A stretch of 18,076 nt of DNA from a virus (taxonomy: Duplodnaviria; Heunggongvirae; Uroviricota; Caudoviricetes): the IMG/VR virus record IMGVR_UViG_2731957842_000001, positions 1 through 18,076 of that record; one strand, 5' to 3'. Both the position numbers and the translations under genes were made by a program. Under the pieces are notes generated by a model, which had not been told where the DNA came from, ran no database searches, and worked only from the letters and a program-made list of their open reading frames with translations. This document shows, piece by piece, positions 974-18,076 of the stretch; position 1 is the first letter of the stretch; each line of letters opens with the position of its first letter.

Positions 974-1029
974 GGTTTTCTCACTTCTGAATCGGTGTTA
1001 ACCGGTCAGCCAGGCTGACCGGATGAAAA

Positions 1030-1548: not shown

Positions 1549-1560
1549 CGGTCAGGCTCC

Positions 1561-2751: not shown

Positions 2752-2810
2752 CCGTTTAACTCCGTGGTTAATGGGTGAGTGGTATTTTCAGTTGTGCCGG
2801 AGATGTCAGG

Positions 2811-3404
2811 CTATTTGTCCCGGTTGGCTAAGGGATGACACAATTTATTCTTTGTCGCTGATGAGGGAAATTTTTTATAGAGCGTGGACAGGCCAATATC
2901 AAAAATCAGCGCCACACGTTGACGAGATTCCCCCGCAGCCAGCAACCGTCCGACCTGCTCCCACTCACTCGCGGTGAGTTTCGGACGCCTGCCACCAATA
3001 CGACCTTTAGCTCTGGCCGCTTCCAGTCCGGCGCGTGTCCGCTCGACAATGAGTTCTCGCTCCATTTCAGCCAGGGCACCCATCACATGAAAGAAAAAAC
3101 GCCCCATCGGCGTGCTGGTATCAATAGCATCCGTCAGACTGCGAAAATTAACGCCGCGTTCGCGCAGTTCCTCAACCAGAATGACCAGATGCCGCATACT
3201 ACGCCCCAGCCTGTCCAGCTTCCAGACTACCAGAGTGTCACCTGCTGATAATGTTCTGAGCAGTTTTTTCAGTCCCGGTCGGTCGGACTTCGTGCCGCTG
3301 ATTTTATCCTCAAAAATCCGCTCGCATCCTGCGCACTCCAGCGCGTTACGCTGCAATTCCGTGTTCTGGTCATTTGTTGACACGCGTACATAGCCAATAA
3401 GCAT
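2811..3404 (-). CDS. Site-specific DNA invertase, serine recombinase of the Hin/Gin/Pin/Cin (Din) family
   Basis: MLIGYVRVSTNDQNTELQRNAL...LVVWKLDRLGRSMRHL...FRSLTDAIDTSTPMGRFFFHVMGALAEMERELIVERT...GRIGGRRPKLT is near-identical in pattern to Gin/Pin, with the catalytic Ser in RVST and a C-terminal HTH. I take the second ATG (3404) as the start because AGGGGG sits 6 nt upstream of it; the track ORF starts 2 codons earlier at 3410. Confidence 0.9.
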   Translation of the reverse strand: MLIGYVRVSTNDQNTELQRNALECAGCERIFEDKISGTKSDRPGLKKLLRTLSAGDTLVVWKLDRLGRSMRHLVILVEELRERGVNFRSLTDAIDTSTPMGRFFFHVMGALAEMERELIVERTRAGLEAARAKGRIGGRRPKLTASEWEQVGRLLAAGESRQRVALIFDIGLSTLYKKFPSSATKNKLCHPLANRDK

Positions 3405-3459
3405 GAGCATCCCCCTGAATAAAAACCGGAGATGATGCCTGTTGCACGTAATCTCTGCA

Positions 3460-3485
3460 TTTTCTTAAACGTTGGTTTGGGAGAA
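3460..3485. other. Candidate gix/hix/pix-like inversion crossover site (degenerate 12-2-12 inverted repeat)
   Basis: TTTTCTTAAACG-TT-GGTTTGGGAGAA; the right half matches the recalled gix right half GGTTTTGGATAA at 10/12, the left half only about 7/12. It lies 56 bp upstream of the invertase start and at the 5' end of the tail-fibre fragment, where Din crossover sites are found. Confidence 0.35.
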
Positions 3486-3486
3486 G

Positions 3487-3690
3487 GTTCGGCATTACCC
3501 GTTGGCGTGCCTGTTCCGTGGCCTTCCGCCACTCCGCCAACAGGCTGGCTGAAATGCAACGGTGCCGCTTTTTCTGCTGAAGAATACCCGGAACTGGCAA
3601 AGGCTTATCCGACAAATAAATTGCCTGATTTACGTGGTGAGTTTATTCGTGGCTGGGATGACGGGCGTGGAGTGGATAGCCGGTCTTCAA
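3487..3690 (+). pseudogene. Remnant of an alternative tail-fibre C-terminal (variable) segment, truncated
   Basis: Plus-strand frame encodes ...PVGVPVPWPSATPPTGWLKCNGAAFSAEEYPELAKAYPTNKLPDLRGEFIRGWDDGRGVD, the conserved motif I recall just distal to the crossover site in Mu S/S', P1 S and e14 tail fibres. No N-terminal constant part precedes it and it runs straight into antisense gene R; the track ORF 3432..4043 is a chimera. Confidence 0.6.
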
Positions 3691-3701
3691 AACGCTTAAA
3701 C

Positions 3702-4169
3702 TCATTCATCCCACTTGCTCACCAGTTCGCCATTGATATACAGCTCCACCGGGCGGGTGACCGGCTCCGGCGGCGGGGGTTCCGGGATATTCTTCACATG
3801 CAGTGCGCCGTCCACCTCGCTGACCAGCGTGCGCTCGGTCAGCATCAGACTGATGCTGATATCAAAGCTGCTGTCATTGTTGATGTCTGCATAAAACGTG
3901 AAGCCCTTTTTCTGACCTTCGTCAGTGGTCATGATGTCGGGCTGATTTTCCCGCAGCCACGCCAGCACCGGCACGATGAGCAGGTCAAAATCACCGGTAA
4001 AGTCGGTCACAATGACATTGAGCGTGTAACGCTTTTCGAATGACAGCGACGTCGCCAGTGTGGAGGCAATACTCCCGTTATCCACGAATATCCGCAGCAT
4101 CTCGGGGCTGGTTTTCAGCACCGTGACGGCATCAGTCAGTGCCCTGCGCAGGCTGTCGGGTTTGAGCAT
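3702..4169 (-). CDS. R: Tail completion protein R
   Basis: 155-aa ORF MLKPDSLRRALTDAVTVLKTSPEMLRIF...; same length as P2 gpR and in the expected position after the lysis genes. Confidence 0.8.
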   Translation of the reverse strand: MLKPDSLRRALTDAVTVLKTSPEMLRIFVDNGSIASTLATSLSFEKRYTLNVIVTDFTGDFDLLIVPVLAWLRENQPDIMTTDEGQKKGFTFYADINNDSSFDISISLMLTERTLVSEVDGALHVKNIPEPPPPEPVTRPVELYINGELVSKWDE

Positions 4170-4422
4170 CGTTTTCGTCCTGACAGTGTTTAATCATTTT
4201 TACCTGGCTGGCACAGCGTGCCAGCGCGTTCTCAAGCTGCCGGATATCGGCACTTAAATCGCCGTTCGTCTCCGGGTCACTGCCCGGCATCGGGCAAAGA
4301 CTCACTTTCGGGCAGGCGTTGGCGACAATCACTGGCGTCAGTGCAGGCGGGGCGCTGGTGCAACCGGCGCACAGCATCAGGCAGGTCAGCACCGTACCAG
4401 CGGCGAAAATCTTCGTTTTCAT
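4132..4422 (-). CDS. lysC: Outer-membrane lipoprotein spanin (o-spanin), LysC/Rz1-like
   Basis: 96-aa product MKTKIFAAGTVLTCLMLCAGCTSAPP... with a lipobox (LCAGC), embedded in the +1 frame of lysB; the track ORF is longer because of an upstream alternative start. Confidence 0.75.
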   Translation of the reverse strand: MKTKIFAAGTVLTCLMLCAGCTSAPPALTPVIVANACPKVSLCPMPGSDPETNGDLSADIRQLENALARCASQVKMIKHCQDENDAQTRQPAQGTD

Positions 4423-4702
4423 TGAGTAATCTCGTGATGGTTTTCTCGCGCTGTGCTTCACGCTTCGCGGCGTTCTCCAGTTCCTGACGCAGTGCCACCT
4501 GCGCCAGCTCGTTTTTGTCTGCCCTGGTGAGCGCAACATGAAGCTGATTTTTCAGCATGGTGATGGTCGTCTGCTGCCCGCTGGCGACGTTGTTCGCCCT
4601 GTCCAGTGAGGCGCGCAGGCTGGCGTTTTCATGCTTCGCCAGAAACAGCCCCGCCACCGCCAGCGATAACAACACGACCAGTGCAATCATCAGCTTTGAC
4701 AT
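4277..4702 (-). CDS. lysB: Inner-membrane spanin (i-spanin), LysB/Rz-like
   Basis: 141-aa ORF with an N-terminal TM helix (MSKLMIALVVLLSLAVAGLFLA) and a coiled-coil periplasmic domain; same length as recalled P2 LysB. Confidence 0.8.
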   Translation of the reverse strand: MSKLMIALVVLLSLAVAGLFLAKHENASLRASLDRANNVASGQQTTITMLKNQLHVALTRADKNELAQVALRQELENAAKREAQREKTITRLLNENEDFRRWYGADLPDAVRRLHQRPACTDASDCRQRLPESESLPDAGQ

Positions 4703-5115
4703 AGTTCCCGCCCCTCAAGACGCTGACGGCAGGCCGTGCGTATCAGCCGGAAAAACAGCGACGCCACGAGATAAATCAGCGCGGTAAAAATCCACCCGGC
4801 AGCGACCAGCGCGATAAACGTCGCCACCATCACCACCAGAGCCGCCGCCCGTCTGCGCCACGGCACCGGCTGCAAAAACAGCGACGTGACAATCTTCACG
4901 GCCAGCGATTCCGGCGGCAGCTCCCGTCCGTAGCGTTCCAGTACATACTCCGTGGCATACACCCCGACACCACCGGCAACCACACAGATAACCGTCGCCA
5001 GAATCGCCCAGGTGGCGACAAAACTGACGGCCACGCTCTGCGGGTAAATCAGGGACAGTGCCAGCATCAGCGCCAGCGACACGTGCAGCATCAGTGAAAG
5101 GGATAATTTCTTCAT
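4690..5115 (-). CDS. lysA: Lysis-timing membrane protein LysA
   Basis: 141-aa multi-TM protein (MKKLSLSLMLHVSLALMLALSLIYP...) between endolysin and lysB, as in P2. Confidence 0.75.
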   Translation of the reverse strand: MKKLSLSLMLHVSLALMLALSLIYPQSVAVSFVATWAILATVICVVAGGVGVYATEYVLERYGRELPPESLAVKIVTSLFLQPVPWRRRAAALVVMVATFIALVAAGWIFTALIYLVASLFFRLIRTACRQRLEGRELCQS

Positions 5116-5129
5116 GGTGTTTACTCCGT

Positions 5130-5627
5130 TTAAGCCGGTACGCCGCCAGCGGTACGCCAGACGGTGACCAGTTTTTCCAGTGAATGCTCACGCTGACCGT
5201 AACCGGCACCCGGCAGGGACGCCCAGATATTGCGACAGCGTGAAATGGCGCGCTCAATGCGTCCCGCCCGGATGTCATCCAGTGCACCGCGTTCGCGGAT
5301 CAACTGAATGGCAAGTCTGTCCTGTGACAACGGACTGAAATCCGGCAGGGCAAGCTGTTTGCGGTAGTGCGGCCAGAACAGGTAAAGCTGCTGATAGCGA
5401 CCGGAGGCCGTGGATTTTTCACCGCGACGGTTAAACACCTTCGCCGGTCGGCCATGCGCGAACGGGTGGTCACTGTAGTCGGTAAAAATTTCCGGCTTCC
5501 CGTCCAGTCCGGTGACTATCACGTCATAGCCCCGGTTTTTCGTCAGCGGATGATTCGCCGTCCCTTCGGACACGGCCAGCATGTCGAGAAAGGCGGCGAT
5601 ATTCTGGTGCGTGTTAATTACCGGCAT
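5130..5627 (-). CDS. K: Endolysin (lysozyme-type)
   Basis: 165-aa ORF MPVINTHQNIAAFLDMLAVSEGTANHPLTKNRGYDVIVTG...; matches recalled P2 gpK in length and sequence. Confidence 0.9.
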   Translation of the reverse strand: MPVINTHQNIAAFLDMLAVSEGTANHPLTKNRGYDVIVTGLDGKPEIFTDYSDHPFAHGRPAKVFNRRGEKSTASGRYQQLYLFWPHYRKQLALPDFSPLSQDRLAIQLIRERGALDDIRAGRIERAISRCRNIWASLPGAGYGQREHSLEKLVTVWRTAGGVPA

Positions 5628-5908
5628 TACGGTTTCCCCCTGCCCTTAAAGCGGCGCTGAATGGCAATCTCAATCACCTGATAACCGGCGATACCCAGCA
5701 TGGAGCCGATGCCGCACACCGCAGGCAGTGACAGGTCAGGAAACTGCACCAGAACAACACCGGCAACCATCGAGACAAAACCACCGAGCAACATGCGCCC
5801 GATAAACAGACGCGGGGTGATGGGTTCACCACCGGCAAGCACCTTGCCGACAACAATCAGCACCCCAATCATGAAAAGCGACAGGACGCTTTTTTCTTCT
5901 GCTGTCAT
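5627..5908 (-). CDS. Y: Holin
   Basis: 93-aa ORF with hydrophobic TM segments (MTAEEKSVLSLFMIGVLIVVGKVLAGG...); overlaps the K start in an ATGA arrangement, as P2 Y does. Confidence 0.85.
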   Translation of the reverse strand: MTAEEKSVLSLFMIGVLIVVGKVLAGGEPITPRLFIGRMLLGGFVSMVAGVVLVQFPDLSLPAVCGIGSMLGIAGYQVIEIAIQRRFKGRGKP

Positions 5909-5911
5909 GCG

Positions 5912-6115
5912 TTACTCCCACAGATTGACAGTTTCAGCCACGGGCGCTGTCTGAACGTCGGGCAGTTCGACGGCGGTGCCGTGTGGCAGCACCGCACCCA
6001 GTTCAGACAGTCCCGGATTTGCGGCGAGCACGGTCTCAACCACGCCCTCAGTGCGCCCGTAATACCGGACACAGATGGCGTCGAGCGTGTCGCCCTGTAG
6101 CGCAAAGGTCTTCAT
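5912..6115 (-). CDS. X: Tail protein X (LysM-like)
   Basis: 67-aa product from the internal Met: MKTFALQGDTLDAICVRYYGRTEGVVETVLAANPGLSELGAVLP...; its start overlaps the L stop. Confidence 0.7.
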   Translation of the reverse strand: MKTFALQGDTLDAICVRYYGRTEGVVETVLAANPGLSELGAVLPHGTAVELPDVQTAPVAETVNLWE

Positions 6116-6624
6116 CAGATTTGACTCACGATGCAGCGCGGCTTGTCCTGGATACGCGCCACCGCCCAGCGCATATCCCGCCACAGCTCATCAATGGTGC
6201 TGTCTATGCTGTCGGCCTTTTTGTCGCCTTTCGCACTGGCATCCACGCCGCGATAACGCTCATAAAGCGACGCGGTCGCCATCGCACACACGGCGCGCTC
6301 GTAGTAAAAAACCTTGATGCTTTCACCGTCGATGTCGTCCGCCGGGACGTCCGCCAGACGCGTAAAACCGGCGGCAATTTTCTGTTCGCGGTACTCGTAC
6401 AGCTCCGCATTCGTCTCCGCCATGCCTGACTTGATGGCCTCTCGCAGACGGGCGGGGGCGACGGTCTGCTCAAGGCGCATACGTTCCCGGACGCGCTTCG
6501 GGTCGATATCGGGAAAAAAGAACGTGTTTTTAATCACCGGCTCGTCGCCTGCCGGTTGCGGGATGACCACCGTACCCTCACCGGACACGGGAGCCTCCTT
6601 TCGCGGAATAATCAGCGTCATCAT
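6115..6624 (-). CDS. L: Head completion / stabilisation protein
   Basis: 169-aa product starting MMTLIIPRKEAPVSGEG at 6624 with an AGAGG Shine-Dalgarno 5 nt upstream; the track ORF extends further from an alternative start. Confidence 0.8.
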   Translation of the reverse strand: MMTLIIPRKEAPVSGEGTVVIPQPAGDEPVIKNTFFFPDIDPKRVRERMRLEQTVAPARLREAIKSGMAETNAELYEYREQKIAAGFTRLADVPADDIDGESIKVFYYERAVCAMATASLYERYRGVDASAKGDKKADSIDSTIDELWRDMRWAVARIQDKPRCIVSQI

Positions 6625-6723
6625 GACTACCTCTGAAAAGTCGGGCGGTGGACGCCGGTGCAGTGTCAGGTGATTCACCCTCACTGACCGGCGTGCCGCC
6701 CTGGCGCGGGGCGCATTCGGTTG

Positions 6724-7461
6724 TTAACTGGCTTTCTTTTTCGGGCGTCCACGTTTTGCCGGTGTCGCACTCCGGGTCTTACGCGGGGCGCGGGTGACCG
6801 CTTTTGGCTCCGGCTTCGGTTTCAGCTCCCGCTCCAGTCGTTCAATCTCTTTTTTGACGCCTGCCTGACAGTCGAGCTGTGTCGCACGTTGCAGGTGTGC
6901 CAGCGCACCGGCGGCATCACCACCGTCACGCAGAAACAGACCGGTGATTTTGTGCAGCTTTGCGCGCACTTCATCAGGCATGTCAGCCGTGGCGGTCAGT
7001 TCAAGGGTGTCCGTCAGCAGGCGGGGATCCACAGACTCACCGGCAGCGTGAGCGCGCATGGCCGCGAGCGCCACCTCCTCGGTGAACATGTACGGCGGGG
7101 TGCGGCGGTGTTTACCCGGCATGGTCAGACCGTACTTCAGGGCGTAACGGGCAATCTCCAGCGCGCCGGCAATATCACCGGTATCCAGACGCCACAGCAT
7201 GACCGTCATCAGAATGTCATCCTGTGCGCCTTTGCCCTGCTCCAGCACGCCGTTCACCCACGGCAACCAGAACGGCAGCAGTTCGCGTTTTTTTGCGGCC
7301 TTCAGCTCTTTTGAATAAATCGCTTTCAGTGTGCGCTGGTCTGCGGCGAGCTTAACCAGCATCTGCTCATAGACAGTTGCATGTCGCAGCGGGGCGGCTT
7401 CCCGCTGCGCGGTCATCGCTGCCGAGACCCGCATCATGTGGCGCTGTGCGGGACTCGTCAT
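6724..7461 (-). CDS. M: Terminase small (endonuclease) subunit
   Basis: 245-aa ORF with a basic C-terminal tail (...RAPRKTRSATPAKRGRPKKKAS), directly downstream of N; matches recalled P2 gpM. Confidence 0.85.
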   Translation of the reverse strand: MTSPAQRHMMRVSAAMTAQREAAPLRHATVYEQMLVKLAADQRTLKAIYSKELKAAKKRELLPFWLPWVNGVLEQGKGAQDDILMTVMLWRLDTGDIAGALEIARYALKYGLTMPGKHRRTPPYMFTEEVALAAMRAHAAGESVDPRLLTDTLELTATADMPDEVRAKLHKITGLFLRDGGDAAGALAHLQRATQLDCQAGVKKEIERLERELKPKPEPKAVTRAPRKTRSATPAKRGRPKKKAS

Positions 7462-7464
7462 CGG

Positions 7465-8538
7465 TTACGCTCCCGGCTCTGCGGTCGCCCTGGCCGGTGT
7501 GGAGAAATCACCGACCTTAATTTTTTCCACCAGACAACCGGCGGCGTAGTCTTCCACCACGTAATCAATGTTCATTGACTCGTAGTTCTCCACGCGGTCG
7601 AGTTTCGGGTTTTCCACAATCACGCGGCGATGGCTGTCATCCATGTAGTAGATGGACAGGTTTTCCAGCTTCGTGATGAGCATCGCATCCGCCGGGAAGT
7701 ACGGGACACGTACCGCCGGCAGGTTACCGATGCGTTTCTGGCTGATGATGACGTCAGCGGCCAGCATTTCGCTGTTGTCCTGCTCCTTGTTGACGATGGG
7801 GAAATACTTGTCCGCCAGTAGCTGACGCCCCACAATCACCACAAGGTCAGGGTCTTCCTGATACCACGGCTCAATCAGGTTGTTGGTCGCATCCATCACC
7901 AGTGCATCGAGGCTGGCATAATCACCGCCCTTACCCACGCGGATGACCTCAGAGGTCGTGTGACCTTCCTCGTCAGTAACCTTGCTCATCACGCGCGCCG
8001 GGGCTTCATTGCGGTATTTCTGCAGCCAGCCGACCGCCACATCCTGCAGCATCGGGTTACTGCTGCGGTCAGAGGTTTCGGCACGCTTCACGCCGTTAAA
8101 ACCGGCCATGATGAAATCAAGGGACTGGCGTTTGATAATGGCGTTACGGACACGGAGCTGGAAATCCTGATAACGCGCCCACAGGTCCAGCGTTTTGTAG
8201 CGGATATAAAAATCGAAGTTAATCTGGTCGCATTCGTACTTGTTTGACGCCAGCTTCGAGAAGTCCTTCGGCTGGCGCTCGGTGCCACCGGCGGTGTCGG
8301 TGGTGCTGGCGATGGAGCCGGTGACACCGATGCCAATTTTTTCCCCTTTCATTTCGCTGACCGGCACAATGTTGATGCGGGTCAGAAAGTCAGAGGACTC
8401 CTGCATGGTGTTCATCAGGGTCTGGGTGACCGACGGTTCAACGGTGAATTTTTTCGACACATCACCGGCGTCGATGCCGTTCAGTTCGGCAACACGGGAC
8501 AGGTAAGCATTAAATTTAAAGCGGGTTTCCTGGCGCAT
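7465..8538 (-). CDS. N: Major capsid protein
   Basis: 357-aa ORF MRQETRFKFNAYLSRVAELNGIDAGDVSKKFTVEPSVTQTLMNTMQESSDF...; length and sequence match recalled P2 gpN. Confidence 0.9.
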   Translation of the reverse strand: MRQETRFKFNAYLSRVAELNGIDAGDVSKKFTVEPSVTQTLMNTMQESSDFLTRINIVPVSEMKGEKIGIGVTGSIASTTDTAGGTERQPKDFSKLASNKYECDQINFDFYIRYKTLDLWARYQDFQLRVRNAIIKRQSLDFIMAGFNGVKRAETSDRSSNPMLQDVAVGWLQKYRNEAPARVMSKVTDEEGHTTSEVIRVGKGGDYASLDALVMDATNNLIEPWYQEDPDLVVIVGRQLLADKYFPIVNKEQDNSEMLAADVIISQKRIGNLPAVRVPYFPADAMLITKLENLSIYYMDDSHRRVIVENPKLDRVENYESMNIDYVVEDYAAGCLVEKIKVGDFSTPARATAEPGA

Positions 8539-8596
8539 AGTTTTTCCTGAAATTAAGGGTTAATCGTGAAGGTTTTCCCGGACTGACTGACGCCGG

Positions 8597-9451
8597 TCAG
8601 CAGTTCGTCATCAGGGCGTCACCGCCACCACCGGTGGCCTTGCTGCGGCGCTGCTGGGTCAGACTTTCGGTGTGGTCGAGACTGTTTTTCAGGCGGGTGA
8701 ATGCCTGGCTGGTTTCATCCGCCCTGTCAGTCACCTCCTGCTTAAGTGCGGAAAAGGCGGTTTCCATCTCAGCGAGGCGCTGCTCAGTGGCGCTCAGTTT
8801 TTCCTGCACATGTTCAGCAACAGCGGTCACCGCTTCATGCACATCATTCAGACGGGCGTCATCGCTGGCCTGTTTGCGGCCAAAAATGGATTTCACCTTT
8901 TCGGTCAGGGCGGTGAACACGGTTTCAGGCAGGTCTTCAAATTCCAGCTCAACGGGCGTTGCCACTGAAATCAGGTTTTCAGGGCTTAATTTGAAGCGGT
9001 TCAGAGGGTTGTGTTTTGCCGTGCGGCAGAATTCCAGGTATTCCGTGCCGAGGCTTGCCGGGTCATCGGTGACGGCCAGCCCCACCAGATAACATTTGCC
9101 GGTGTTGGCAAAGTTCGGCTGAATTTCCATTGAGGTGTAGACCTTCTGCGCGGCCTTGTTCATCGCGATAAGGTCATCGGTCGGGGTGATTTTCGCAAAC
9201 AGCGCCCATTTGCCTTTCAGCGCCGAATCGTCATCAATCTTTTCGGCCTTCAGTTCGACCACATCGCCATAACGTTTAAAAATACCGTCAGGCAGGATGC
9301 CGCGCAGATGTTCCAGGTTAATGCGGCAACCGTAGACACGCGGGTCAAAGGTTTCGGCCATTTCCTGAATATCCTGCGCACTGATGACACGCCCGTCACA
9401 GGTGTCACCCTCAACGCCGATACGAAAGAATTTTGAGACTTTTTTTGCCAT
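8597..9451 (-). CDS. O: Capsid scaffolding protein
   Basis: 284-aa product from the internal ATG at 9451 (MAKKVSKFFRIGVEGDTCDGRVISAQDIQEMAETFDP...); the track ORF starts further upstream. Confidence 0.85.
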   Translation of the reverse strand: MAKKVSKFFRIGVEGDTCDGRVISAQDIQEMAETFDPRVYGCRINLEHLRGILPDGIFKRYGDVVELKAEKIDDDSALKGKWALFAKITPTDDLIAMNKAAQKVYTSMEIQPNFANTGKCYLVGLAVTDDPASLGTEYLEFCRTAKHNPLNRFKLSPENLISVATPVELEFEDLPETVFTALTEKVKSIFGRKQASDDARLNDVHEAVTAVAEHVQEKLSATEQRLAEMETAFSALKQEVTDRADETSQAFTRLKNSLDHTESLTQQRRSKATGGGGDALMTNC

Positions 9452-9624
9452 TGTCAGGAGTCCTGAATAGTGATTAGAGGAGTCACATGTCGGCATCAGT
9501 TTCCCGACGATGCGCATCCTCCGCCATCAGTCCCGGATGGCTTATCACTGACACAACAGCACCTTAGCGAATCGCGGGGCGCGACTCAGTAGCCTTGCCG
9601 TGTATTCATCACGGCGAGGTATTC
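9452..9624. promoter_or_regulatory. Divergent late-promoter region between O (leftward) and P-Q (rightward)
   Basis: 173-bp intergenic region flanked by divergent operon starts. It contains the inverted repeat GTCGG-N10-CCGAC at 9489-9508, loosely like the TGT-N12-ACA element of Ogr-dependent P2 late promoters. No -10/-35 could be pinned down by eye. Confidence 0.35.
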
Positions 9625-11397
9625 ATGACCATCACCACAGACACCACTCTTTTACACGACCCGCGTCGTCAGGCGGCGCTGCTGTACTGGCAGGGGTTTT
9701 CCGTGCCGCAGATTGCCGCCATGTTGCAGATGAAACGCCCGACGGTGCAGAGCTGGAAACAGCGCGACGGCTGGGACAGCGTTGCCCCCATCAGCCGTGT
9801 CGAAATGAGCCTGGAAGCGCGGCTGACCCAGCTCATCATCAAACCGCAGAAAACCGGCGGTGACTTCAAGGAAATTGACCTGCTGGGACGCCAGATTGAA
9901 CGACTGGCGCGGGTCAACCGCTACAGTCAGACCGGCAACGAGGCAGACCTTAATCCGAACGTCGCTAACCGCAACAAAGGCGGGCGTCGCAAACCGAAAA
10001 AGAATTTTTTCAGTGACGAAGCCATCGAAAAGCTGGAGCAGATTTTCTTTGAGCAGTCTTTCGACTATCAGTTGCACTGGTATCGCGCCGGGCTTGAGCA
10101 CCGCATCCGCGATATACTGAAATCCCGCCAGATTGGCGCAACGTTTTATTTTTCCCGCGAGGCGCTGCTGCGCGCCCTGAAAACCGGCCATAACCAGATT
10201 TTTCTGTCGGCCAGTAAAACGCAGGCGTATGTGTTCCGCGAATACATCATCGCCTTTGCCCGTCTGGTTGACGTTGACCTGACCGGTGACCCGATTGTCC
10301 TGGGCAATAACGGCGCAAAACTAATTTTTCTCGGCACCAACTCCAACACCGCACAGAGCCATAACGGCGACCTGTACGTCGACGAGATTTTCTGGATCCC
10401 GAATTTTCAGGTACTGCGTAAGGTGGCATCAGGTATGGCCTCACAGAGTCACCTGCGTTCGACCTATTTCTCCACCCCGTCCACGCTGGCGCACGACGCC
10501 TACCCGTTCTGGTCAGGTGAACTGTTCAACCGGGGACGCGCCAGCGCCGCCGAACGCGTGGAAATCGACGTCAGTCATAACGCCCTTGCCGGTGGGCTTC
10601 TCTGTGCGGACGGCCAGTGGCGGCAGATTGTCACCATTGAGGACGCCCTGAAAGGTGGCTGCACGCTGTTCGACATTGAGCAGCTCAAACGTGAAAACAG
10701 CGCCGACGATTTTAAAAACCTGTTCATGTGTGAATTTGTTGACGACAAGGCGTCGGTGTTCCCGTTCGAGGAGCTGCAACGCTGCATGGTCGACACGCTG
10801 GAAGAATGGGAAGACTATGCGCCGTTTGCCGCCAATCCGTTCGGCTCCCGCCCGGTATGGATTGGTTACGACCCGTCACACCGTGGCGACAGCGCCGGAT
10901 GCGTGGTGCTGGCACCGCCGGTGGTGGCCGGTGGCAAATTCAGAATACTTGAGCGTCACCAGTGGAAAGGCATGGACTTTGCCACCCAGGCGGAATCCAT
11001 CCGCAAACTCACCGAAAAATATAACGTTGAATACATCGGGATTGATGCCACCGGCCTCGGTGTCGGCGTGTTCCAGCTCGTGCGCTCGTTCTATCCCGCC
11101 GCGCGCGATATCCGCTACACGCCGGAAATGAAAACCGCAATGGTGCTCAAGGCAAAAGACGTTATCCGCCGTGGCTGTCTGGAATATGACGTCAGCGCCA
11201 CCGACATCACCAGCTCGTTCATGGCTATCCGCAAGACCATGACCAGCAGCGGACGCAGCGCCACCTATGAGGCCAGCCGCAGCGAGGAAGCCAGCCACGC
11301 CGACCTCGCCTGGGCAACCATGCACGCCCTGTTAAATGAGCCACTCACCGCCGGTATCAGCACTCCGCTGACATCCACCATTCTGGAGTTTTACTGA
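9625..11397 (+). CDS. P: Terminase large (ATPase) subunit
   Basis: 590-aa product from the ATG at 9625, with GAGG 6 nt upstream; the stop overlaps the Q start (TGATG). Length and sequence match recalled P2 gpP. Confidence 0.9.
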   Translation: MTITTDTTLLHDPRRQAALLYWQGFSVPQIAAMLQMKRPTVQSWKQRDGWDSVAPISRVEMSLEARLTQLIIKPQKTGGDFKEIDLLGRQIERLARVNRYSQTGNEADLNPNVANRNKGGRRKPKKNFFSDEAIEKLEQIFFEQSFDYQLHWYRAGLEHRIRDILKSRQIGATFYFSREALLRALKTGHNQIFLSASKTQAYVFREYIIAFARLVDVDLTGDPIVLGNNGAKLIFLGTNSNTAQSHNGDLYVDEIFWIPNFQVLRKVASGMASQSHLRSTYFSTPSTLAHDAYPFWSGELFNRGRASAAERVEIDVSHNALAGGLLCADGQWRQIVTIEDALKGGCTLFDIEQLKRENSADDFKNLFMCEFVDDKASVFPFEELQRCMVDTLEEWEDYAPFAANPFGSRPVWIGYDPSHRGDSAGCVVLAPPVVAGGKFRILERHQWKGMDFATQAESIRKLTEKYNVEYIGIDATGLGVGVFQLVRSFYPAARDIRYTPEMKTAMVLKAKDVIRRGCLEYDVSATDITSSFMAIRKTMTSSGRSATYEASRSEEASHADLAWATMHALLNEPLTAGISTPLTSTILEFY

Positions 11398-12430
11398 TGA
11401 GCAAGAAAAAAGGGAAAACACCGCGACCTGCGGCAAAAACAATCACCGCCAGCGCCCCGAAAATGGAAGCATTCACCTTTGGCGAGCCGGTGCCGGTACT
11501 CGACCGCCGTGACATTCTGGATTACGTCGAGTGCATCAGTAACGGCAGATGGTATGAGCCGCCGGTCAGCTTTACCGGTCTGGCAAAAAGCCTGCGTGCT
11601 GCCGTGCATCACAGCTCACCGATTTACGTCAAACGTAATATTCTGGCTTCAACGTTTATCCCGCACCCGTGGCTTTCCCAGCAGGATTTCAGCCGCTTTG
11701 TGCTGGATTTTCTGGTGTTCGGTAATGCGTTTCTGGAAAAGCGTTACAGCACCACCGGTAAGGTCATCAGACTGGAAACCTCACCGGCCAAATATACCCG
11801 TCGTGGCGTGGAGGAGGATGTTTACTGGTGGGTGCCGTCCTTCAACGAGCCGACAGCCTTCGCGCCCGGCTCCGTGTTTCATCTGCTGGAGCCTGATATT
11901 AATCAGGAGCTGTACGGCCTGCCGGAATATCTCAGCGCCCTTAACTCTGCCTGGCTGAATGAGTCGGCCACGCTGTTCCGCCGCAAGTATTACGAAAACG
12001 GCGCACATGCCGGATACATCATGTACGTCACCGATGCCGTGCAGGACCGCAACGATATCGAAATGCTTCGCGAAAACATGGTTAAGTCGAAAGGCCGCAA
12101 CAACTTTAAAAACCTGTTTCTCTATGCCCCGCAGGGGAAAGCTGACGGCATTAAAATTATCCCGCTCAGTGAAGTGGCAACGAAGGACGATTTTTTAATA
12201 TCAAAAAAGCCAGTGCCGCAGACCTGCTGGATGCGCACCGCATCCCCTTTCAGTTGATGGGCGGCAAGCCGGAGAACGTCGGGTCGTTGGGTGATATTGA
12301 GAAAGTGGCAAAGGTCTTTGTCCGCAATGAGCTTATCCCGTTACAGGACAGGATCCGCGAGATAAACGGCTGGCTCGGTCAGGAGGTCATCCGCTTTAAA
12401 AACTACTCACTGGACACTGACAACGGCTGA
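11397..12430 (+). CDS. Q: Portal protein, reading frame interrupted by an apparent 1-nt deletion in a T-run at 12191-12196
   Basis: The frame from ATG 11397 reads 266 aa of portal sequence, then ...KDDFLISKKPVPQTCWMRTASPFS to a stop at 12257. The -1 frame from 12197 reads NIKKASAADLLDAHRIPFQLMGGKPENVGSLGDIEKVAKVFVRNELIPLQDRIREINGWLGQEVIRFKNYSLDTDNG to a stop at 12428-12430, just before a terminator. Joined with a T7 run, the product is about 344 aa, as recalled for P2 gpQ. Confidence 0.8.
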
Positions 12431-12435
12431 ACATC

Positions 12436-12457
12436 GCCGCCTGCGGGCGGCTTTTTT
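12436..12457 (+). terminator. Rho-independent terminator after the P-Q operon
   Basis: GCCGCC-TGCG-GGCGGC stem-loop followed by TTTTTT, beginning 6 nt after the Q stop. Confidence 0.6.
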
Positions 12458-12599
12458 ACACCCCGTCATCACGCACTCACACGCTCACCACCGCACAAAA
12501 CACCCCGCAGACACACCAATGCCCCGGCGCACAATCTAAACGCTGTCACGACGCGCTCAGACGCTGAAAAAATAAAATCAGCACCACCGCCAGCGCGCA

Positions 12600-12618
12600 G
12601 TGCTTTCCCCGCCTCGCC
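12600..12618. other. cos cohesive-end sequence of the P2/186 type
   Basis: GTGCTTTCCCCGCCTCGCC is the reverse complement of GGCGAGGCGGGGAAAGCAC, which I recall as the 19-nt P2 cohesive end. It sits just distal to Q, where cos lies in P2. Confidence 0.7.
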
Positions 12619-12742
12619 CGCCCGCTTCATGGGGCGGTTTTAATGCAAATGCATTCTGGTTCCATGCATTTTGATGGCAATAGTATACGCACAAAATTTA
12701 TCGGACATAACGTATGCATTTTCATGCACCGTCATGCCCCCC

Positions 12743-12830
12743 TTGACAATCCCATGATTTTTTAGAGCAAGCTTGCATTCCATACTGTCAAAACACATTA
12801 TATACTTGGGCTTTTTATACAAGGACTTAA
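12743..12830 (+). promoter_or_regulatory. Candidate promoter/RBS region for the ATPase-partner operon
   Basis: TTGACA at 12743-12748 and TATACT at 12801-12806, but their spacing is not canonical; AAGGA Shine-Dalgarno at 12821-12825, 7 nt before the ATG. The exact promoter is unresolved. Confidence 0.3.
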
Positions 12831-12832
12831 AC

Positions 12833-14531
12833 ATGTTAACAAAATTCTCAGGAAAAAATTACAAAGCATTTAAGGATTTCTCGTTCGAGATTAAGCCTAT
12901 AACGGTGTTATTAGGAGCAAATAGCTGTGGAAAAAGCGCACTTATCAATTCACTTTTGATGTTTTCACAAACAGCAGAAACAATAAACATTTCCGAATCA
13001 GCACTAAGATTAAATGGAAATAAGGTTGGCATGGGGGAATCTCTGAATATCATCAGAGAAAAAACCCAAAAACACCTTAAGTTTTTCATTTGAAATATCA
13101 AATCAACAATCCTTGCGATACGACATTCACAAAAGCAAGCGCGATTTTATTGACTTCTATTTTTCACTTGCCAGATATTTGGGACAAGTATTAAAAAGTG
13201 CGGCATCAACAACACCCAGCAGTGATTTGATGAACAATAGTTTTAATGACACATTAAAAACTATTGATAAAATCGAATCAAACTATATGTTTAGAGACAC
13301 TTACAACTCTGCACAACTTAAAGCCATTTCTGATGGTGTTTGCGAATTATTATCAAAATACAGACAACTACCTGAGGATGTTGCAAAAAAATCCCGTCCA
13401 CATCTCGATCGACTAGCAGAGTTTGTTAATATTGTTTCTTTCGAAAACATTCAAAGCAGCTTAATGTCATTAGCATCTCTTAGTGCAAAAAAAATATCCC
13501 CCAAACGAATTGATTATGATTTTTGCTTTGATAAAAAATCAAACCAACTAAAAATAACCGGGTGCGCTTTTCATAATCACTTAGGCGAATGCATCACCAG
13601 CTTGGGTATATCTAAAGGGAAATTCTTTTTACGCTCTGACGTTATTAAAAGAACTCACTTAAGCAAATCCCGAGAAGAGATATCGAAGCTAATCAATTTC
13701 AATTCACTATCCCTTATAGATGAAATTCAAAACGTTAATTTCATTGACAAACACATTGTGTCCCTTGACCCATTCGCTAGTTTATTCTGCAACTATCTTG
13801 AGAAGCTAACAAAAGCATTTATCTCTGAGTTTAATGGTGTAAAAATAAATCATGTCAGCCCATTAAGGGCATTCCCTCAACGCTACTATCTTTTAGACAA
13901 GTCTATACAGCATACTTTTCTTAATGTTCTGGAAGGTAATGAACTGGCTGAGGTGTTAAAGAAAAATCCAGAAATAAAAAATAAAATTAATATTTTACTG
14001 GCAAAGTTCAATCTTGAAGTAGATGTCGTCATGGTTAATGACATCATTCATAAGATCAACATCACCCAAGATTCCATCTCTCTAGAGTTAACAGATGTAG
14101 GTTTTGGCATATCTCAGGTTTTACCTATTTTGGTTCAAGCCTATTTGTCCCCTAAAAATTCCATCACTATTATAGAACAACCAGAAATTCACTTACACCC
14201 CAAAATGCAAGCATGGCTCACTGACGCTTTAATTCACATTGCATTAAAAGAGAAAAAAAGATTTATTATTGAAACTCACAGTGACGCTCTAATCAGAAGA
14301 ATCAGATTGCGTATTGTTGATACTAAATCGAGCCTTACACCAAATGATGTAATGCTTTGCAATCTTGAAAGAAAATCTGAAGATAATGTCACTAGTTTAA
14401 AAGTGATTCCTATTACCGAGGATGGAGATATAACTTGGCCTGCGGATTTTTTAGACATTGAAATTCAAGACACACTTCAAATCCAGAATTTTAAAGTTAA
14501 AAAACATCTTAAAAGTAAAGGTCTGTTATAA
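12833..14531 (+). CDS. SMC/OLD-type ABC ATPase (AAA_15/AAA_21-like), frame interrupted in an A-run at 13059-13064; ~565 aa if bridged
   Basis: N-terminus MLTKFSGKNYKAFKDFSFEIKPITVLLGANSCGKSALINSL carries a Walker A (GANSCGKS). This frame stops at 13093, while a second frame is open from 13047 and continues ...KPKNTLSFSFEISNQ... to 14531. The C-terminal region has a signature-like GFGISQ, Walker B ITIIEQPE and H-loop HLHP, with a long helical insert between. The region is ~30% GC. Its stop is immediately followed by the next gene's ATG. Confidence 0.75.
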
Positions 14532-15533
14532 ATGTTTTACACTCATTGTATAAGCCCTGAATTCATGGGGCTTCACATCAAAAATATGGACACTTTTATT
14601 TCGATTTTTATGGGTGTTTTAATGAATCCGAAGAACCAGATCGTTTTAGATGAGGCAGGAATAATTGAACAACAATATTTATTAAGTCTTAATAACGACA
14701 AATCAGCTTTTTTGCTCTACCAAACTTGGGAGAAAGCCATAAAATCAGACAGTTGCCAAGGTAAACTATTACTTTCTTCTCCCAATATATCATCTTCAAT
14801 ACATGATTATGTAGTTTCAGCTATTTCATGTGCTATAACCACAAACGACAAAACAATATTAACTGCTGATAACAATTTGTACAGCGCGGCTTTACCTGTT
14901 TTATCCAGACAAAGAATTCACTTACTGGGAATAAGTCATCTAACCCCTCAATCATCAGCAAGCATTATAGGTAAACATATGTCTTTTACAAAACTTGATT
15001 ATGATATTGCCTGGTCTCTAGAGAGATTGGTTCGGCTTCATCGAAAAGGGAACACAGAGGATGACTTAAATGACTTACTCCGTGAATACTTGCTTGCGAA
15101 GGAATACGAGATAAAAGACCAAACTCGTGAAGGCATATCTACAAGTGGAAAGAGCGCCGGAGAACTTGATATTATTGTTGAGCACAACTCAAACATGTTT
15201 GCAATACTAGAAGCAATGAAGCTTAGTCAGATAAACAAGGAGTATATCACCATTCATTACAAAAAAATGCTTGTCAATTACAACCCTCTGGACGTAAAGA
15301 GATTATTCCTCATTACTTATTACGATGGAAAAAAATTCGATACTTGGTGGGATAACTACGTTGAATTTGTAAAAAGTATAGACTACACCACATTAAACCC
15401 TGAAGTCGAAAACACAACATTTGTTAACACAGAAAAGATTAACACGAACTTTGGGAATGTAAAAAAAATGCTACACCACGGTCTGGCTAATGGTGAACAA
15501 TTTTCCGTCATACATTATGCAGTAAAACTGTAA
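14532..15533 (+). CDS. Partner protein of the ATPase, function unknown; candidate effector
   Basis: 333-aa ORF starting 1 nt after the ATPase stop (TAA-ATG), with the same low GC. No family recognised by eye. Weak motifs: VLDEAG plus a downstream DYD (possible Toprim/DUF4435-like) and GELDIIVEH...ILEAMK (possible restriction-endonuclease-like). Followed by a strong terminator. Confidence 0.65.
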   Translation: MFYTHCISPEFMGLHIKNMDTFISIFMGVLMNPKNQIVLDEAGIIEQQYLLSLNNDKSAFLLYQTWEKAIKSDSCQGKLLLSSPNISSSIHDYVVSAISCAITTNDKTILTADNNLYSAALPVLSRQRIHLLGISHLTPQSSASIIGKHMSFTKLDYDIAWSLERLVRLHRKGNTEDDLNDLLREYLLAKEYEIKDQTREGISTSGKSAGELDIIVEHNSNMFAILEAMKLSQINKEYITIHYKKMLVNYNPLDVKRLFLITYYDGKKFDTWWDNYVEFVKSIDYTTLNPEVENTTFVNTEKINTNFGNVKKMLHHGLANGEQFSVIHYAVKL

Positions 15534-15540
15534 CTCTTAT

Positions 15541-15569
15541 AACGTGGTGATTGATATCACCACGTTTTT
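15541..15569 (+). terminator. Rho-independent terminator after the two-gene module
   Basis: Perfect 10-bp stem AACGTGGTGA / TCACCACGTT with a 6-nt loop, followed by TTTTT, 8 nt after the partner gene stop. Confidence 0.65.
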
Positions 15570-15834
15570 ATCCTAAAACAAAATAACAGAAGTTTAGTTA
15601 AAACCGCCTTTCAATTCTTTTAGATATATGGTCTACATACCAGAATTATTATTTCAGGTAATCGTCCGCATGATGAGTTCATTGCTATCCATTGCTCTAT
15701 AGTTTCGGCTATCAACATATCGAACAACCTGACCTGTACTCACCAATTTGCATAAAACTGTCACACCCCAAGGTTTTTACCAACACTGAAAATAACACCA
15801 ATCAGATAATTATCTATTTAGATTAACTTAGTTA

Positions 15835-16323
15835 TCATAAATTCCATTCGGATACTGTTGAATAACCAAGCCACTCATCAGCGACCGGATACGTGAATTT
15901 TTTCCCGTCATAATTTACGGTCGCGCCACGCGCCAGCGCCTCAAGCTCCCATCGCTGCGGCCTGATACCGTTCTGAGCAAGGTCAACGCGGATACGGGTG
16001 ATTTGCATTCGTTCCGACCGGGTCAGTCTGGCCGACGGTGCAATTTCATATGGTTTTAACGGGCTTCCGTTTCTTTGCTGACGGTTTTGCGTTCTCCGAC
16101 CGTGTTTTAATGCGCCCCTGAGCGCCCTCACAACCTCCGGGTCATTCCATTCTATAACCCCGTCATCAACCAGATTAAGCACTGCTGCAGCGTGCTCAGA
16201 CGGTGTGGGAGCCTGTAATGAAGTATCACCACCGGTGAGCTTTCCACAGTTATTGACAGGACTCCGAGGCGCGGCGATGCCGCTTTTTAAAGTCAAAGGC
16301 TCAACGACCGGCACTTTCGGCAC
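15835..16323 (-). CDS. Hypothetical protein, likely last gene of the phage early-region operon
   Basis: 162-aa ORF at phage-like GC, transcribed toward cos as P2 early genes are. The start is uncertain: GTG at 16323 with no convincing ATG or Shine-Dalgarno. No family recognised. Confidence 0.45.
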   Translation of the reverse strand: MPKVPVVEPLTLKSGIAAPRSPVNNCGKLTGGDTSLQAPTPSEHAAAVLNLVDDGVIEWNDPEVVRALRGALKHGRRTQNRQQRNGSPLKPYEIAPSARLTRSERMQITRIRVDLAQNGIRPQRWELEALARGATVNYDGKKFTYPVADEWLGYSTVSEWNL

Positions 16324-16425
16324 AATGCGCCAGTCCGTGGTTCTGGTGATATGAATATGACGCGCGCCGAGATGCGGCGCGTAATTCAGCCTGTTGTTCC
16401 TGAATAAAATCTACGTTGTCCGGCA

Positions 16426-16716
16426 TTACCAGTTCCTTTTGTCGTTCAGTTTTTTAAATTCATCAGCGCAATAGCTGGCGATTTCTGTCGTTAATTTCGT
16501 CAGTTCATCCACGGAGGAAATTTGCTTGTGAAATACAGCGCGTTTAACAAGTAAATTGACCACATCAGACAGGAGATTTAATTTATCCGCATAAATGGCT
16601 ATAGTTGATTCCACCATATCCCCAGTGTTTTTATCGCGTTTAATATCAGCTAGCGACAAATCACCATTTTTCATGACTGAAATCTTCAGCCAGTTATTAA
16701 GCAATATATTTTTCAT
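16426..16716 (-). CDS. Hypothetical protein
   Basis: 96-aa ORF, ~38% GC, overlapping the upstream ORF by 4 nt (operon-like packing). No family recognised. Confidence 0.4.
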   Translation of the reverse strand: MKNILLNNWLKISVMKNGDLSLADIKRDKNTGDMVESTIAIYADKLNLLSDVVNLLVKRAVFHKQISSVDELTKLTTEIASYCADEFKKLNDKRNW

Positions 16717-16964
16717 TCGCCATATGCCCTCTCCGCAGAATCAATCATTTCCCGGCCATTATCGGTAATACAGAAACCTTCTCTTGATTTGGTCACAAGC
16801 CCCCATTTCCCCATTGCTATAAATGCTTTTTCCACACGACTAGGACAGGAGCGGAAGACATCGCTTGAAGGATGTAGTGGAGTCTTGTCATCTAATTTTT
16901 TAAGTAATGAAAGTTGATAATCTGTTAAGCGTTTCCTGAACCATTTTGTATTTGTCATCTCCAA
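16713..16964 (-). CDS. Hypothetical protein
   Basis: 83-aa ORF, tightly packed with its neighbours on the same strand. No family recognised. Confidence 0.4.
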   Translation of the reverse strand: MEMTNTKWFRKRLTDYQLSLLKKLDDKTPLHPSSDVFRSCPSRVEKAFIAMGKWGLVTKSREGFCITDNGREMIDSAERAYGE

Positions 16965-16972
16965 CTTTCCTG

Positions 16973-17197
16973 TTATTTATTGAGTCCTAGATTATGGAAT
17001 TTGGCAGACTCCTGACTGAGCAACTCGACTATCTCCACGCGGGATAACTCCGCCTTTGTGATGTGGCGAATCATGGCGTCAAGATGCGACGAAAAGCGCG
17101 TCGCTGCATCGGCCTGTGCTTCGGTTCTGGCCTGTTGCAGCATTAATGCGTATTTACCGCACTGATTTTCAGAAACTGTATGCATGACTTTCTCCAA
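16973..17197 (-). CDS. Hypothetical small protein
   Basis: 74-aa ORF in the same co-directional cluster. No family recognised. Confidence 0.35.
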
Positions 17198-17248
17198 GCA
17201 AAAAGAAGCCCCGCACGATTAAGTGCGTTAAAAACTTTGGTTAATTAC

Positions 17249-17755
17249 TTAATGTAGATATTGCTCTGGTTTTACCGACGTCAGAATTGTCGGTGCATAT
17301 TCAAACAGACTGAATAATTCACGTAATGCACGGAATAAAGCATCACGCCAGTAACATGACTCTTCATTAATTCGCCAGTATGGCTGATTAAATTCATTTT
17401 CTGTCAGTCGTGCGTGCATAAATAAAGTACGGCGCTGACTGACAGTTAAAAAGCTAATATATGCATACTCACTTGCACCGACCTGACGGCGTTTTGAGAA
17501 TGCCCCACGCAATTCATCAATTGCACAAACCAGCCGTTCACGTTCGACGTCGTTCATTTCTTCAAAACGCATCGTTGCATGACGCTGTTTTAACTGTGCA
17601 TGGAAGCAAACCGTTAGCCGTTCGCGCTCCATCATCTGATTATAATAATCACATGTCTCCTGCCAGCGAGGGACGGCAAGATGCTTACCAATTATCCGGC
17701 GCATAGTTGCTGGTTGTTTTTCAACGAGATTGAGCGTCATCACTGTCATTTCCAT
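17249..17755 (-). CDS. Hypothetical protein
   Basis: 168-aa ORF (MEMTVMTLNLVEKQPATMRRIIGKHLAVPRWQETCDYYNQ...) in the same cluster. No family recognised. Confidence 0.45.
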   Translation of the reverse strand: MEMTVMTLNLVEKQPATMRRIIGKHLAVPRWQETCDYYNQMMERERLTVCFHAQLKQRHATMRFEEMNDVERERLVCAIDELRGAFSKRRQVGASEYAYISFLTVSQRRTLFMHARLTENEFNQPYWRINEESCYWRDALFRALRELFSLFEYAPTILTSVKPEQYLH

Positions 17756-18003
17756 ACCCTCCGGCTTTTCAGAAAGGTCAGAGCCTTTTTTAACGGACTC
17801 TGTTTTTTGGTGCGGATAATGATTCCCTTACGCCCCTTACCGTGGGTAATGGTGAAGTCAATCGCCCTGGGGCTTTCGTTACGCAATAACTGAGCAATAC
17901 AACGAGGCTCGTTCATCCTTTCCACCTTAAGCCGCACGGCCATGTCTTGATTTGCTGTAACTAATGCGATTTTTCCAGTCATGCCATTCTGTCGGAGCTT
18001 CAT
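17746..18003 (-). CDS. Hypothetical basic small protein (alternative to the partial ORF below)
   Basis: ATG at 18003 (the track lists a TTG at 18006), very K/R-rich. It overlaps the partial ORF 17927..18076 in another frame, so at most one of the two is real. Confidence 0.25.
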   Translation of the reverse strand: MKLRQNGMTGKIALVTANQDMAVRLKVERMNEPRCIAQLLRNESPRAIDFTITHGKGRKGIIIRTKKQSPLKKALTFLKSRRVWK

Positions 18004-18076
18004 CAACTAGTTGGGCTGCGTACTTGTCCCACTCACGGCGATTAATCCATAACTCAGCATGACCGCCCGGCTTTAA
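17927..18076 (-). CDS. 3' end of a gene entering from beyond the right window edge (partial)
   Basis: A minus-strand frame is open from the window edge to the stop at 17927-17929: LKPGGHAELWINRREWDKYAAQLVDEAPTEWHDWKNRISYSKSRHGRAA. It has no start in the window, so it is absent from the ORF track. Confidence 0.25.
   Translation of the reverse strand, partial: LKPGGHAELWINRREWDKYAAQLVDEAPTEWHDWKNRISYSKSRHGRAA

Follow-up and report, generated by a model that had tools for sequence, protein, structure and literature searches.

An ABC-ATPase partner protein of a P2-like prophage combines an inactive PIN-like domain with a BamHI-like PD-(D/E)xK domain and is a probable anti-phage effector

Introduction

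The described defence systems closest to the gene pair analysed here are Menshen (Millman 2022; PMC12065111) and HEC-03 (Payne et al., bioRxiv 10.1101/2024.01.29.577857). The Menshen protein NsnC joins an N-terminal inactive PIN domain, which falls into 35 'inPIN' families, to a C-terminal effector domain (Li et al. NAR 2025, PMC12065111). Fifteen families of NsnC effector domain are recognized, nine of them of the BECR type and the others being the DUF4276 and RloB Toprim families, PB-PLD1, DUF4160, PB-UF1 and a DUF2103-like family; the inPIN domains are predicted to bind RNA, and most of the effectors are predicted to be RNases (PMC12065111). In an AlphaFold3 (AF3) model of an NsnB4–NsnC2 complex, the inPIN domain lies between the DUF3696 tails of a dimer of the ATPase NsnB (PMC12065111). 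Because the survey of Li et al. was anchored on NsnA (PMC12065111), pairs of this type that lack NsnA fall outside it. HEC-03, the closest validated two-gene analogue, consists of an ATP-binding cassette (ABC) ATPase and a PIN-domain protein; it provides defence, requires both genes and is toxic on induction (Payne et al., bioRxiv 10.1101/2024.01.29.577857). In PARIS (AriA–AriB) and Septu (PtuA–PtuB), which like the present pair are found in P2/P4-type hotspots or defence islands, an ABC ATPase oligomer likewise controls a separately encoded nuclease. Here we describe a gene pair from an 18,076-nucleotide stretch of caudoviral DNA (IMG/VR record IMGVR_UViG_2731957842_000001, positions 1 to 18,076; hereafter the window), in which a gene for a 333-amino-acid (aa) protein, the effector of this study, directly follows an ABC ATPase gene.

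We find that the pair is an NsnA-less, Menshen/HEC-03-like ABC-ATPase module, and that what is new in it is the combination of an inactive PIN domain with an unnamed BamHI-like PD-(D/E)xK effector domain that is shared with ROCO and STAND proteins. In our preferred account, which we consider probable, the 333-aa protein acts as effector in a two-gene anti-phage module, composed of an NsnB-like ATPase and an NsnC-like protein without NsnA and carried as cargo in the gpQ–gpA hotspot of a P2-like prophage; the dead PIN domain would dock the protein and the restriction-endonuclease (REase) fold would cut. An initial annotation of the window had proposed an effector with either an REase-like core built on an E-x-x-K motif or a degenerate Toprim domain. 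The effector role and the REase core have held up, and the Toprim domain and the E-x-x-K motif have not.

An NsnB-like ATPase gene and a conserved effector gene

A search of 5.8 billion proteins yielded 32 clusters of effector relatives (at 90% identity) that are 38–99% identical to the window protein and come from Enterobacterales and Pseudomonas. Except for one 184-aa fragment, their members are 308–337 aa long, and the alignment of this close family has 44 invariant columns. A HMMER scan of 1.84 billion 50% representatives gave about 40 full-length relatives, all of ~333 aa and reaching down to ~19% identity, within a total of 1086 clusters (50% level) at E<=1e-3, most of which match only residues ~145–331. 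Because of these clusters, full-length relatives and invariant columns, the effector ORF (open reading frame) is a real conserved gene and not a chance ORF. The motifs on which the initial annotation had drawn are all present (IVLDEAG at residues 37–43, DYD at 156–158, GELDIIVEH at 210–218 and AILEAMK at 224–230), and the protein does contain few cysteines (C6, C75 and C100). The remark that no family could be recognized also stands, as nothing significant was found for the effector in Pfam, NCBIfam, PADLOC, PHROGs or the PDB sequences, and sequence-profile searches of the PDB with two family alignments gave nothing meaningful. (DUF2463 (Pfam, E 0.05) and DUF6602 (Pfam, E 0.09; best 3e-4, in 3/71 relatives) were below the cut-off and were not used, and phrog_21510 (E 0.006) is an uninformative family to which no function is assigned.)

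The ATG of the effector gene abuts the TAA stop codon of the ATPase gene (TAAATG), a junction through which the effector is probably translationally coupled to the ATPase. In every locus examined the ATPase gene lies directly upstream, the effector gene starting no more than a few bases from the ATPase stop codon or overlapping it, which bears out the earlier proposal that the effector is the partner of a defence-type ABC ATPase. A locus scan with the close-family alignment covered nine loci, and a search with distant relatives added four proteins, all on short contigs. The pair is found in P2 hotspots of E. coli, E. ruysiae and Providencia, in an AlpA-type island of Pseudomonas, in a recombinase island of Klebsiella and in chromosomal islands of Dryocola, Leclercia, Pantoea, Pseudomonas and Pseudoalteromonas; the gene order is kept on metagenomic contigs whose relatives are only ~20% identical. 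In the relatives the partner ATPase is an intact ORF of 552–604 aa, including one of 566 aa at locus L001 and an intact one at the E. ruysiae locus L015.

For three diverged partner ATPases the best PADLOC model was NsnB (E 4e-52 to 2e-49; model positions 1–77 and 107–342 of 345), with PDC-M55A and HEC-03B next in rank and AriA (E ~1e-27) well below them. The PtuA models match the partner weakly; the ATPase is thus closer to NsnB than to AriA or PtuA. In an alignment of 12 partner ATPases, the Walker A motif reads LLGANSCGKS, GFG replaces the ABC signature, the Walker B motif reads IIEQPE (with Glu for Asp and Gln for the catalytic Glu) and the H-loop reads ETHSD; the alignment also contains PLRAFPQRYY. 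The likeness to NsnB, whose reported peculiarities are DE to EN, SGG to GxG and Q to R (Li et al. NAR 2025, PMC12065111), therefore extends from the AAA_15 family and the best-matching model to GxG in place of SGG, a Walker B motif with Asp changed to Glu and an amide at the catalytic Glu, and a C-terminal tail, for which the DUF3696 match, seen in one ortholog, is sub-threshold (18.5 bits against a cut-off of 22). The ATPase differs from the NsnB model in being ~200 aa longer. It also matches the PADLOC model of the HEC-03 ATPase (E 7e-41 to 8e-45), mainly over positions 285–455 of 458, the C-terminal third. (Note that the matching PADLOC-DB model, PDLC04148, is named 'HEC-03B', whereas the preprint names the ATPase HEC-03A and the PIN protein HEC-03B.)

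Neither an NsnA (ParB-DUF262 + ParBDB) gene nor a DGxQR ORF was found within 4–8 kb of the pair in the window and in loci L003–L022; the metagenomic contigs L025–L027 are too short to inform on NsnA. On contig L025 a distant relative of the pair (3200–5571) has an SRAP-domain gene and a PIN_12/PIN_8 gene as flanking neighbours, which may point to a small defence island.

The C-terminal half is a BamHI-like PD-(D/E)xK domain

An AlphaFold2 run on the family alignment (pLDDT 85, pTM 0.53) gave a model of the effector with two confident domains and a low-confidence linker at residues 140–147. The C-terminal half is a BamHI-like PD-(D/E)xK fold domain with the alpha-beta-beta-beta-alpha-beta core of that superfamily. 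Its closest structures (search scores in brackets) are OkrAI (8.3), BstYI (8.2), BamHI (8.2), BglII (8.1), CdiA-CT EC869 (7.4) and McrC (7.4), and further matches include SwaI, Can2, NucC, Shedu SduA, Card1, EcoT38I, HamA and Cas4. The restriction-endonuclease-like core that the initial annotation had suspected in this half is borne out by these BamHI-like neighbours. Its argument against an HNH nuclease likewise agrees with the model, since no HNH structure was among the 60 matches listed in either structure search; neither an HNH motif nor an HNH fold was found in the effector, which has three cysteines only, in contrast to the HNH effector PtuB of Septu.

On the model the acidic residues of the domain take up canonical positions: helix 1 carries E176, strand 2 carries D213 at its start, and strand 3 contains E227. 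In two superfamily alignments, of 71 and 79 sequences that are 20–30% identical, Q197, G201, D213, E227, H242, K245 and Y250 are invariant, and E176, N180, D181, R184, D196, R199, S203 and G210 are nearly so (>=90%). D213 and E227, which had been singled out as candidate catalytic residues within ELDIIV and LEAMK, are thus invariant across the whole superfamily. The lysine of the proposed E-x-x-K motif is not: K230 varies (K/R/I/N) among relatives.

The BamHI, BglII, BstYI and OkrAI endonucleases, the CdiA-CT EC869 DNase and McrC are only ~6–13% identical in sequence to the effector domain, which differs from them in four further ways. The position two residues beyond the strand-3 Glu (E+2) is not occupied by Lys, Glu or Gln; strands 1 and 2 are separated by an inserted, conserved loop of 17 residues (DQTR-G-S...G); the helix that follows strand 3 bears the invariant H242 and K245; and there is no methyltransferase partner. 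The conservation pattern suggests that the catalytic base or lysine has been relocated to H242/K245, and these two residues may substitute for the missing E+2 Lys. There is a precedent for relocation within the fold, in that the second acidic residue is shifted in Cfr10I and NgoMIV.

The same domain ends other NTPase-switch proteins

Pfam scans of the multi-domain matches placed the nuclease domain at the C terminus of the LRR-Roc-COR proteins P0056, P0074, P0125, P0130 and P0149 and of the nSTAND3 NTPase P0138, and found it co-occurring with zinc ribbons, SLFN_AlbA_2 and HATPase_c; no Pfam model in these scans covered the nuclease domain itself. Death or effector modules typically occupy the terminal slot of NTPase-switch immune proteins, and fusion to LRR-Roc-COR and nSTAND3 supports the predicted effector character of the domain. 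In Salegentibacter salinarum (L023, 5799–8447), an 882-aa protein with a leucine-rich-looking repeat at its start ends in the same REase-like domain, and the neighbouring genes on both sides look, by appearance, like DNA methyltransferase genes.

The N-terminal half is a catalytically dead PIN-like domain

The N-terminal half of the effector is a catalytically dead PIN-like domain. Its strands and helices alternate in the order of the PIN fold (Table 1), and the only invariant residues are D40 and Y49, with C8, P9 and I129 nearly invariant. The D-E-D-D acidic tetrad of active PIN domains is not retained, D40 being the sole invariant residue among the acidic positions: the end of strand 1 carries Cys/Ser8-Pro9, the end of strand 3 carries Ser, and the position after strand 4 carries D/N113. 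Residue 8 (14553–14555 in the window) is Cys in >=90% of the family, within a C-x-C-P motif, and is Ser in the clade of the window protein, so that the near-invariant Cys8 is not essential. Mean pairwise identity is 0.20 in this domain, compared with 0.30 in the C-terminal domain. A profile search with the PIN-like domain alone, for other effector fusions, returned two fragments only.

These findings dispose of the reading in which the protein would be a PARIS-type effector, that is, a degenerate Toprim (E...DxD) nuclease like AriB/DUF4435. The partner ATPase does also match the AriA models, more weakly (E ~1e-27). The reading is nevertheless refuted at the level of the fold: the candidate Toprim residues are not conserved, the two folds are PIN-like and REase, no Toprim structure was among the 60 matches listed in either structure search, and neither DUF4435 nor AriB was matched in the effector in searches of Pfam and PADLOC. 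We accordingly assign it virtually no weight. PARIS and Septu thus differ from the present pair in their effectors, Toprim/DUF4435 in AriB and HNH in PtuB as opposed to PIN-like plus PD-(D/E)xK.

The retention of D40 bears on a different alternative, in which the REase-fold domain would be a non-catalytic nucleic-acid-binding module and the activity would come from another centre, such as the ATPase or a non-canonical PIN-like site near D40/D113. This alternative would accommodate the invariance of D40, the loss of the ExK lysine (M229) and the existence in NsnA of inactive REase domains that act as sensors. We nonetheless consider it very improbable, because the three acidic residues at canonical sites, like H242 and K245, are invariant or nearly so across upwards of 70 sequences of 20–30% identity, and because ROCO and STAND proteins carry the domain in their terminal effector slot, whereas the PIN-like domain keeps one invariant acidic residue and evolves faster.

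The effector thereby follows the NsnC plan of a dead PIN-like domain and a C-terminal toxic domain, encoded directly downstream of the ATPase, and differs from NsnC in that its REase fold lies outside the 15 families of NsnC C-terminal domain. It shares with HEC-03 the two-gene arrangement of an ABC ATPase and a PIN-domain protein, and differs in that the HEC-03 partner is a VapC-like PIN protein whereas the PIN domain here is dead and is followed by an REase domain. The fallback offered by the initial annotation, an uncharacterised effector, is therefore only half right, since the architecture matches a published plan.

Proposed mode of action

The effector is most likely the killing component of a two-gene anti-phage system. 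We propose that its dead PIN domain would serve to dock it on an ATPase dimer or tetramer, at the C-terminal tail, by analogy with the AF3 prediction for NsnB–NsnC and the PtuA–PtuB and AriA–AriB complexes. The ATPase would keep the nuclease silent until a phage cue is perceived, with the large variable insert of ~200 aa as the candidate sensor; the E-Q Walker B motif suggests a switch that works by ATP binding over fast hydrolysis. On sensing, the effector would be released or allosterically activated, and the REase-fold domain would then cut nucleic acid in a metal-dependent manner, with abortive infection or destruction of phage DNA as the outcome.

Because the nearest folds are DNases, DNA appears somewhat more likely than RNA to be the substrate. 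In the alternative, which we regard as rather unlikely, the same defence module would act through cleavage of RNA (tRNA, rRNA or mRNA), with the dead PIN domain as an RNA-recognition module of the kind proposed for NsnC. Some PD-(D/E)xK enzymes do cut RNA, and the Menshen analysis, with its RNA-binding inPIN domains and mostly RNase effectors, would lead one to expect as much. However, the top structural neighbours of the domain (OkrAI, BstYI, BamHI, BglII, CdiA-CT EC869, McrC and SwaI) are all DNA endonucleases or DNases, and the AF3 models in that analysis set the inPIN domain against the ATPase tail, pointing to docking rather than to RNA binding.

Several observations weigh against the account of a DNA-cutting, NsnC-like effector in a two-gene defence module. 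The Menshen authors favour RNA targets for NsnC (PMC12065111). Menshen proper needs NsnA, which is absent from every locus with sufficient flanking sequence, and a PADLOC search at E<=1 returned no model for the effector, not even that of NsnC or of the HEC-03 partner. Position 229, the E+2 position, is Met or Leu, so that catalysis is predicted from conservation. Both variants of the pair known from P2-like prophages were catalogued by Rousset 2022 and are absent from the sets tested there. Finally, compared with the intact genes of L001 and L015, the ATPase gene of the window lacks two bases in A/C homopolymer runs at ~13059–13068 (net -2); barring sequencing errors at these sites, the system is probably inactive in this copy.

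The broken ATPase gene bears in turn on the possibility that the pair is a toxin–antitoxin or addiction module, in which the nuclease would be a constitutive toxin and the ATPase its antitoxin, stabilizing the prophage or island without any sensing of phage. The genes are tightly coupled and lie on mobile elements, Pfam annotates AAA_21 as 'putative AbiEii toxin, type IV TA', and HEC-03 is toxic when induced. Against this, the effector is intact in the window beside a broken ATPase gene, and a free toxin should not be tolerated; the argument is a mild one, and it loses force should the indels be sequencing errors or should coupling prevent the effector from being expressed. In the analogous PARIS system, moreover, deletion of either gene is non-toxic, and the ATPase of the present pair is a 566-aa machine with a variable insert typical of sensors. 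We consider an addiction module improbable and retain the two-gene defence module as the preferred account.

The occurrence of an NsnB–NsnC-type pair without the proposed NsnA sensor bears on how Menshen-type ATPases sense infection, and the present effector adds a DNA-endonuclease fold to a family thought to consist mostly of RNases. Since the same module ends ROCO (LRRK2-like) and STAND proteins, one biochemical characterization would inform several immune switches. More tentatively, our findings raise the possibility that the pair provides defence on its own, without NsnA, the ABC ATPase doubling as the phage sensor, and that residues 145–333 represent an unnamed PD-(D/E)xK family. This family would be marked by a catalytic Lys/His relocated to the helix that follows strand 3, by an invariant DQTR-G-S loop and by a size of at least 1086 clusters at 50% identity; it would have been plugged as a 'death' module onto ABC ATPases, STAND NTPases and LRR-Roc-COR GTPases, the loop being a shared activation or regulatory element.

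The prophage locus and the state of this copy

Table 1 Features of the ATPase–effector locus (positions in the window)
Feature	Position	Strand	Basis or remark
NsnB-like ABC (AAA_15) ATPase gene, obligate upstream partner	12833..14531	+	Pfam AAA_15/AAA_21; PADLOC NsnB best match
ORF left by ATPase frameshift (Walker A part)	12773..13093	+	
ORF left by ATPase frameshift	13113..14531	+	
Effector ORF, 333 aa, including stop codon	14532..15533	+	ATG start, 333 codons; relatives; junction with ATPase gene
Inactive PIN-like (inPIN-type) domain, residues 1-138	14532..14945	+	strand-helix alternation: b1 3-7, b2 35-40, b3 79-82, b4 106-110, b5 129-132
PD-(D/E)xK (restriction-endonuclease-fold) nuclease domain, residues 145-333	14964..15530	+	BamHI-like topology plus C-terminal three-stranded sheet
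Candidate catalytic residues and family signature span	15057..15266	+	invariant or >=90% conserved in 71- and 79-sequence superfamily alignments
Candidate catalytic codon E176	15057-15059	+	
Candidate catalytic codon D213	15168-15170	+	
Candidate catalytic codon E227	15210-15212	+	
Candidate catalytic codon H242	15255-15257	+	
Candidate catalytic codon K245	15264-15266	+	
Signature loop D196-Q197-T-R199-x-G201-x-S203...G210			
Terminator-like hairpin (11-bp stem, then T-rich tail), 8 nt after effector stop	15541..15566	+	consensus scan only
Gene A remnant, 162-aa ORF	15835-16323	-	left after ~2.2 kb deletion

The window is a P2-like (Peduovirus) prophage in which the portal gene Q and the replication endonuclease gene A flank the pair; this gpA–gpQ, cos-proximal 'old/tin' locus is the P2 defence hotspot described by Rousset et al. 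2022. The cargo has a GC content of 33–37%, and the island as a whole (12500–15999) one of 33–43%, compared with 53–59% in the P2 late-gene backbone, which is consistent with horizontally acquired hotspot cargo. Exactly this cargo occurs in 5 of 5426 complete E. coli genomes, and a 43%-identical variant is far commoner (651 blocks of the assembly collection listed in the index). The variant (L003–L007, E. coli; P2-EC5 ORF555/ORF333 type) occupies the same gpA–gpQ hotspot in the opposite orientation relative to the backbone, so that the two variants appear to have been inserted independently.

Both have earlier records. ORF555/ORF333 of P2-EC5 (GenBank AM157364), located in the same P2 gpA–gpQ hotspot, are a homologous pair whose effector is ~41–43% identical to that of the window, and pairs of this type are system #69, 'AAA_15/AAA_21', with 62 occurrences (Rousset 2022 Table S5B). 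WP_133265710, annotated on L001 and 99% identical to the window effector, is listed as 'AAA_15/AAA_21 + hypothetical' (Rousset 2022 Table S5A). In these records the genes are entered as hypothetical, without domain assignment, and beyond Menshen, HEC-03 and the Rousset catalogue we found no named system for the pair in the literature. A 'hypothetical protein' of P2-like prophages since 2006 can now be treated as a testable two-domain effector with named candidate catalytic residues.

The ATPase is not the only damaged gene in the window. Relative to L001 and L015, a T-run of the portal gene Q (11397–~12430) is one nucleotide short at 12191, which leaves ORFs of 286 aa and 58 aa instead of one of 344 aa. 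An internal deletion of ~2.2 kb at ~16384 has removed most of gene A and the neighbouring small genes. The prophage is thus probably cryptic. Only three indels were found in the 9.8 kb compared; the small ones could be assembly or sequencing errors, and the ATPase frameshift may equally be real pseudogenization. The effector protein of the window is 100% identical to that of E. ruysiae L015, where the ATPase is intact.

A promoter scan of the window gave nothing above the shuffled expectation, and Rfam gave no match in the window as a whole. The hairpin that follows the effector gene is the probable end of the two-gene operon, as judged from its terminator-like features. The interval from the portal stop codon to the ATPase start, in which the P2 cos site would be expected, contains two G+C-rich terminator-like hairpins (12434–12451 and 12618–12637).

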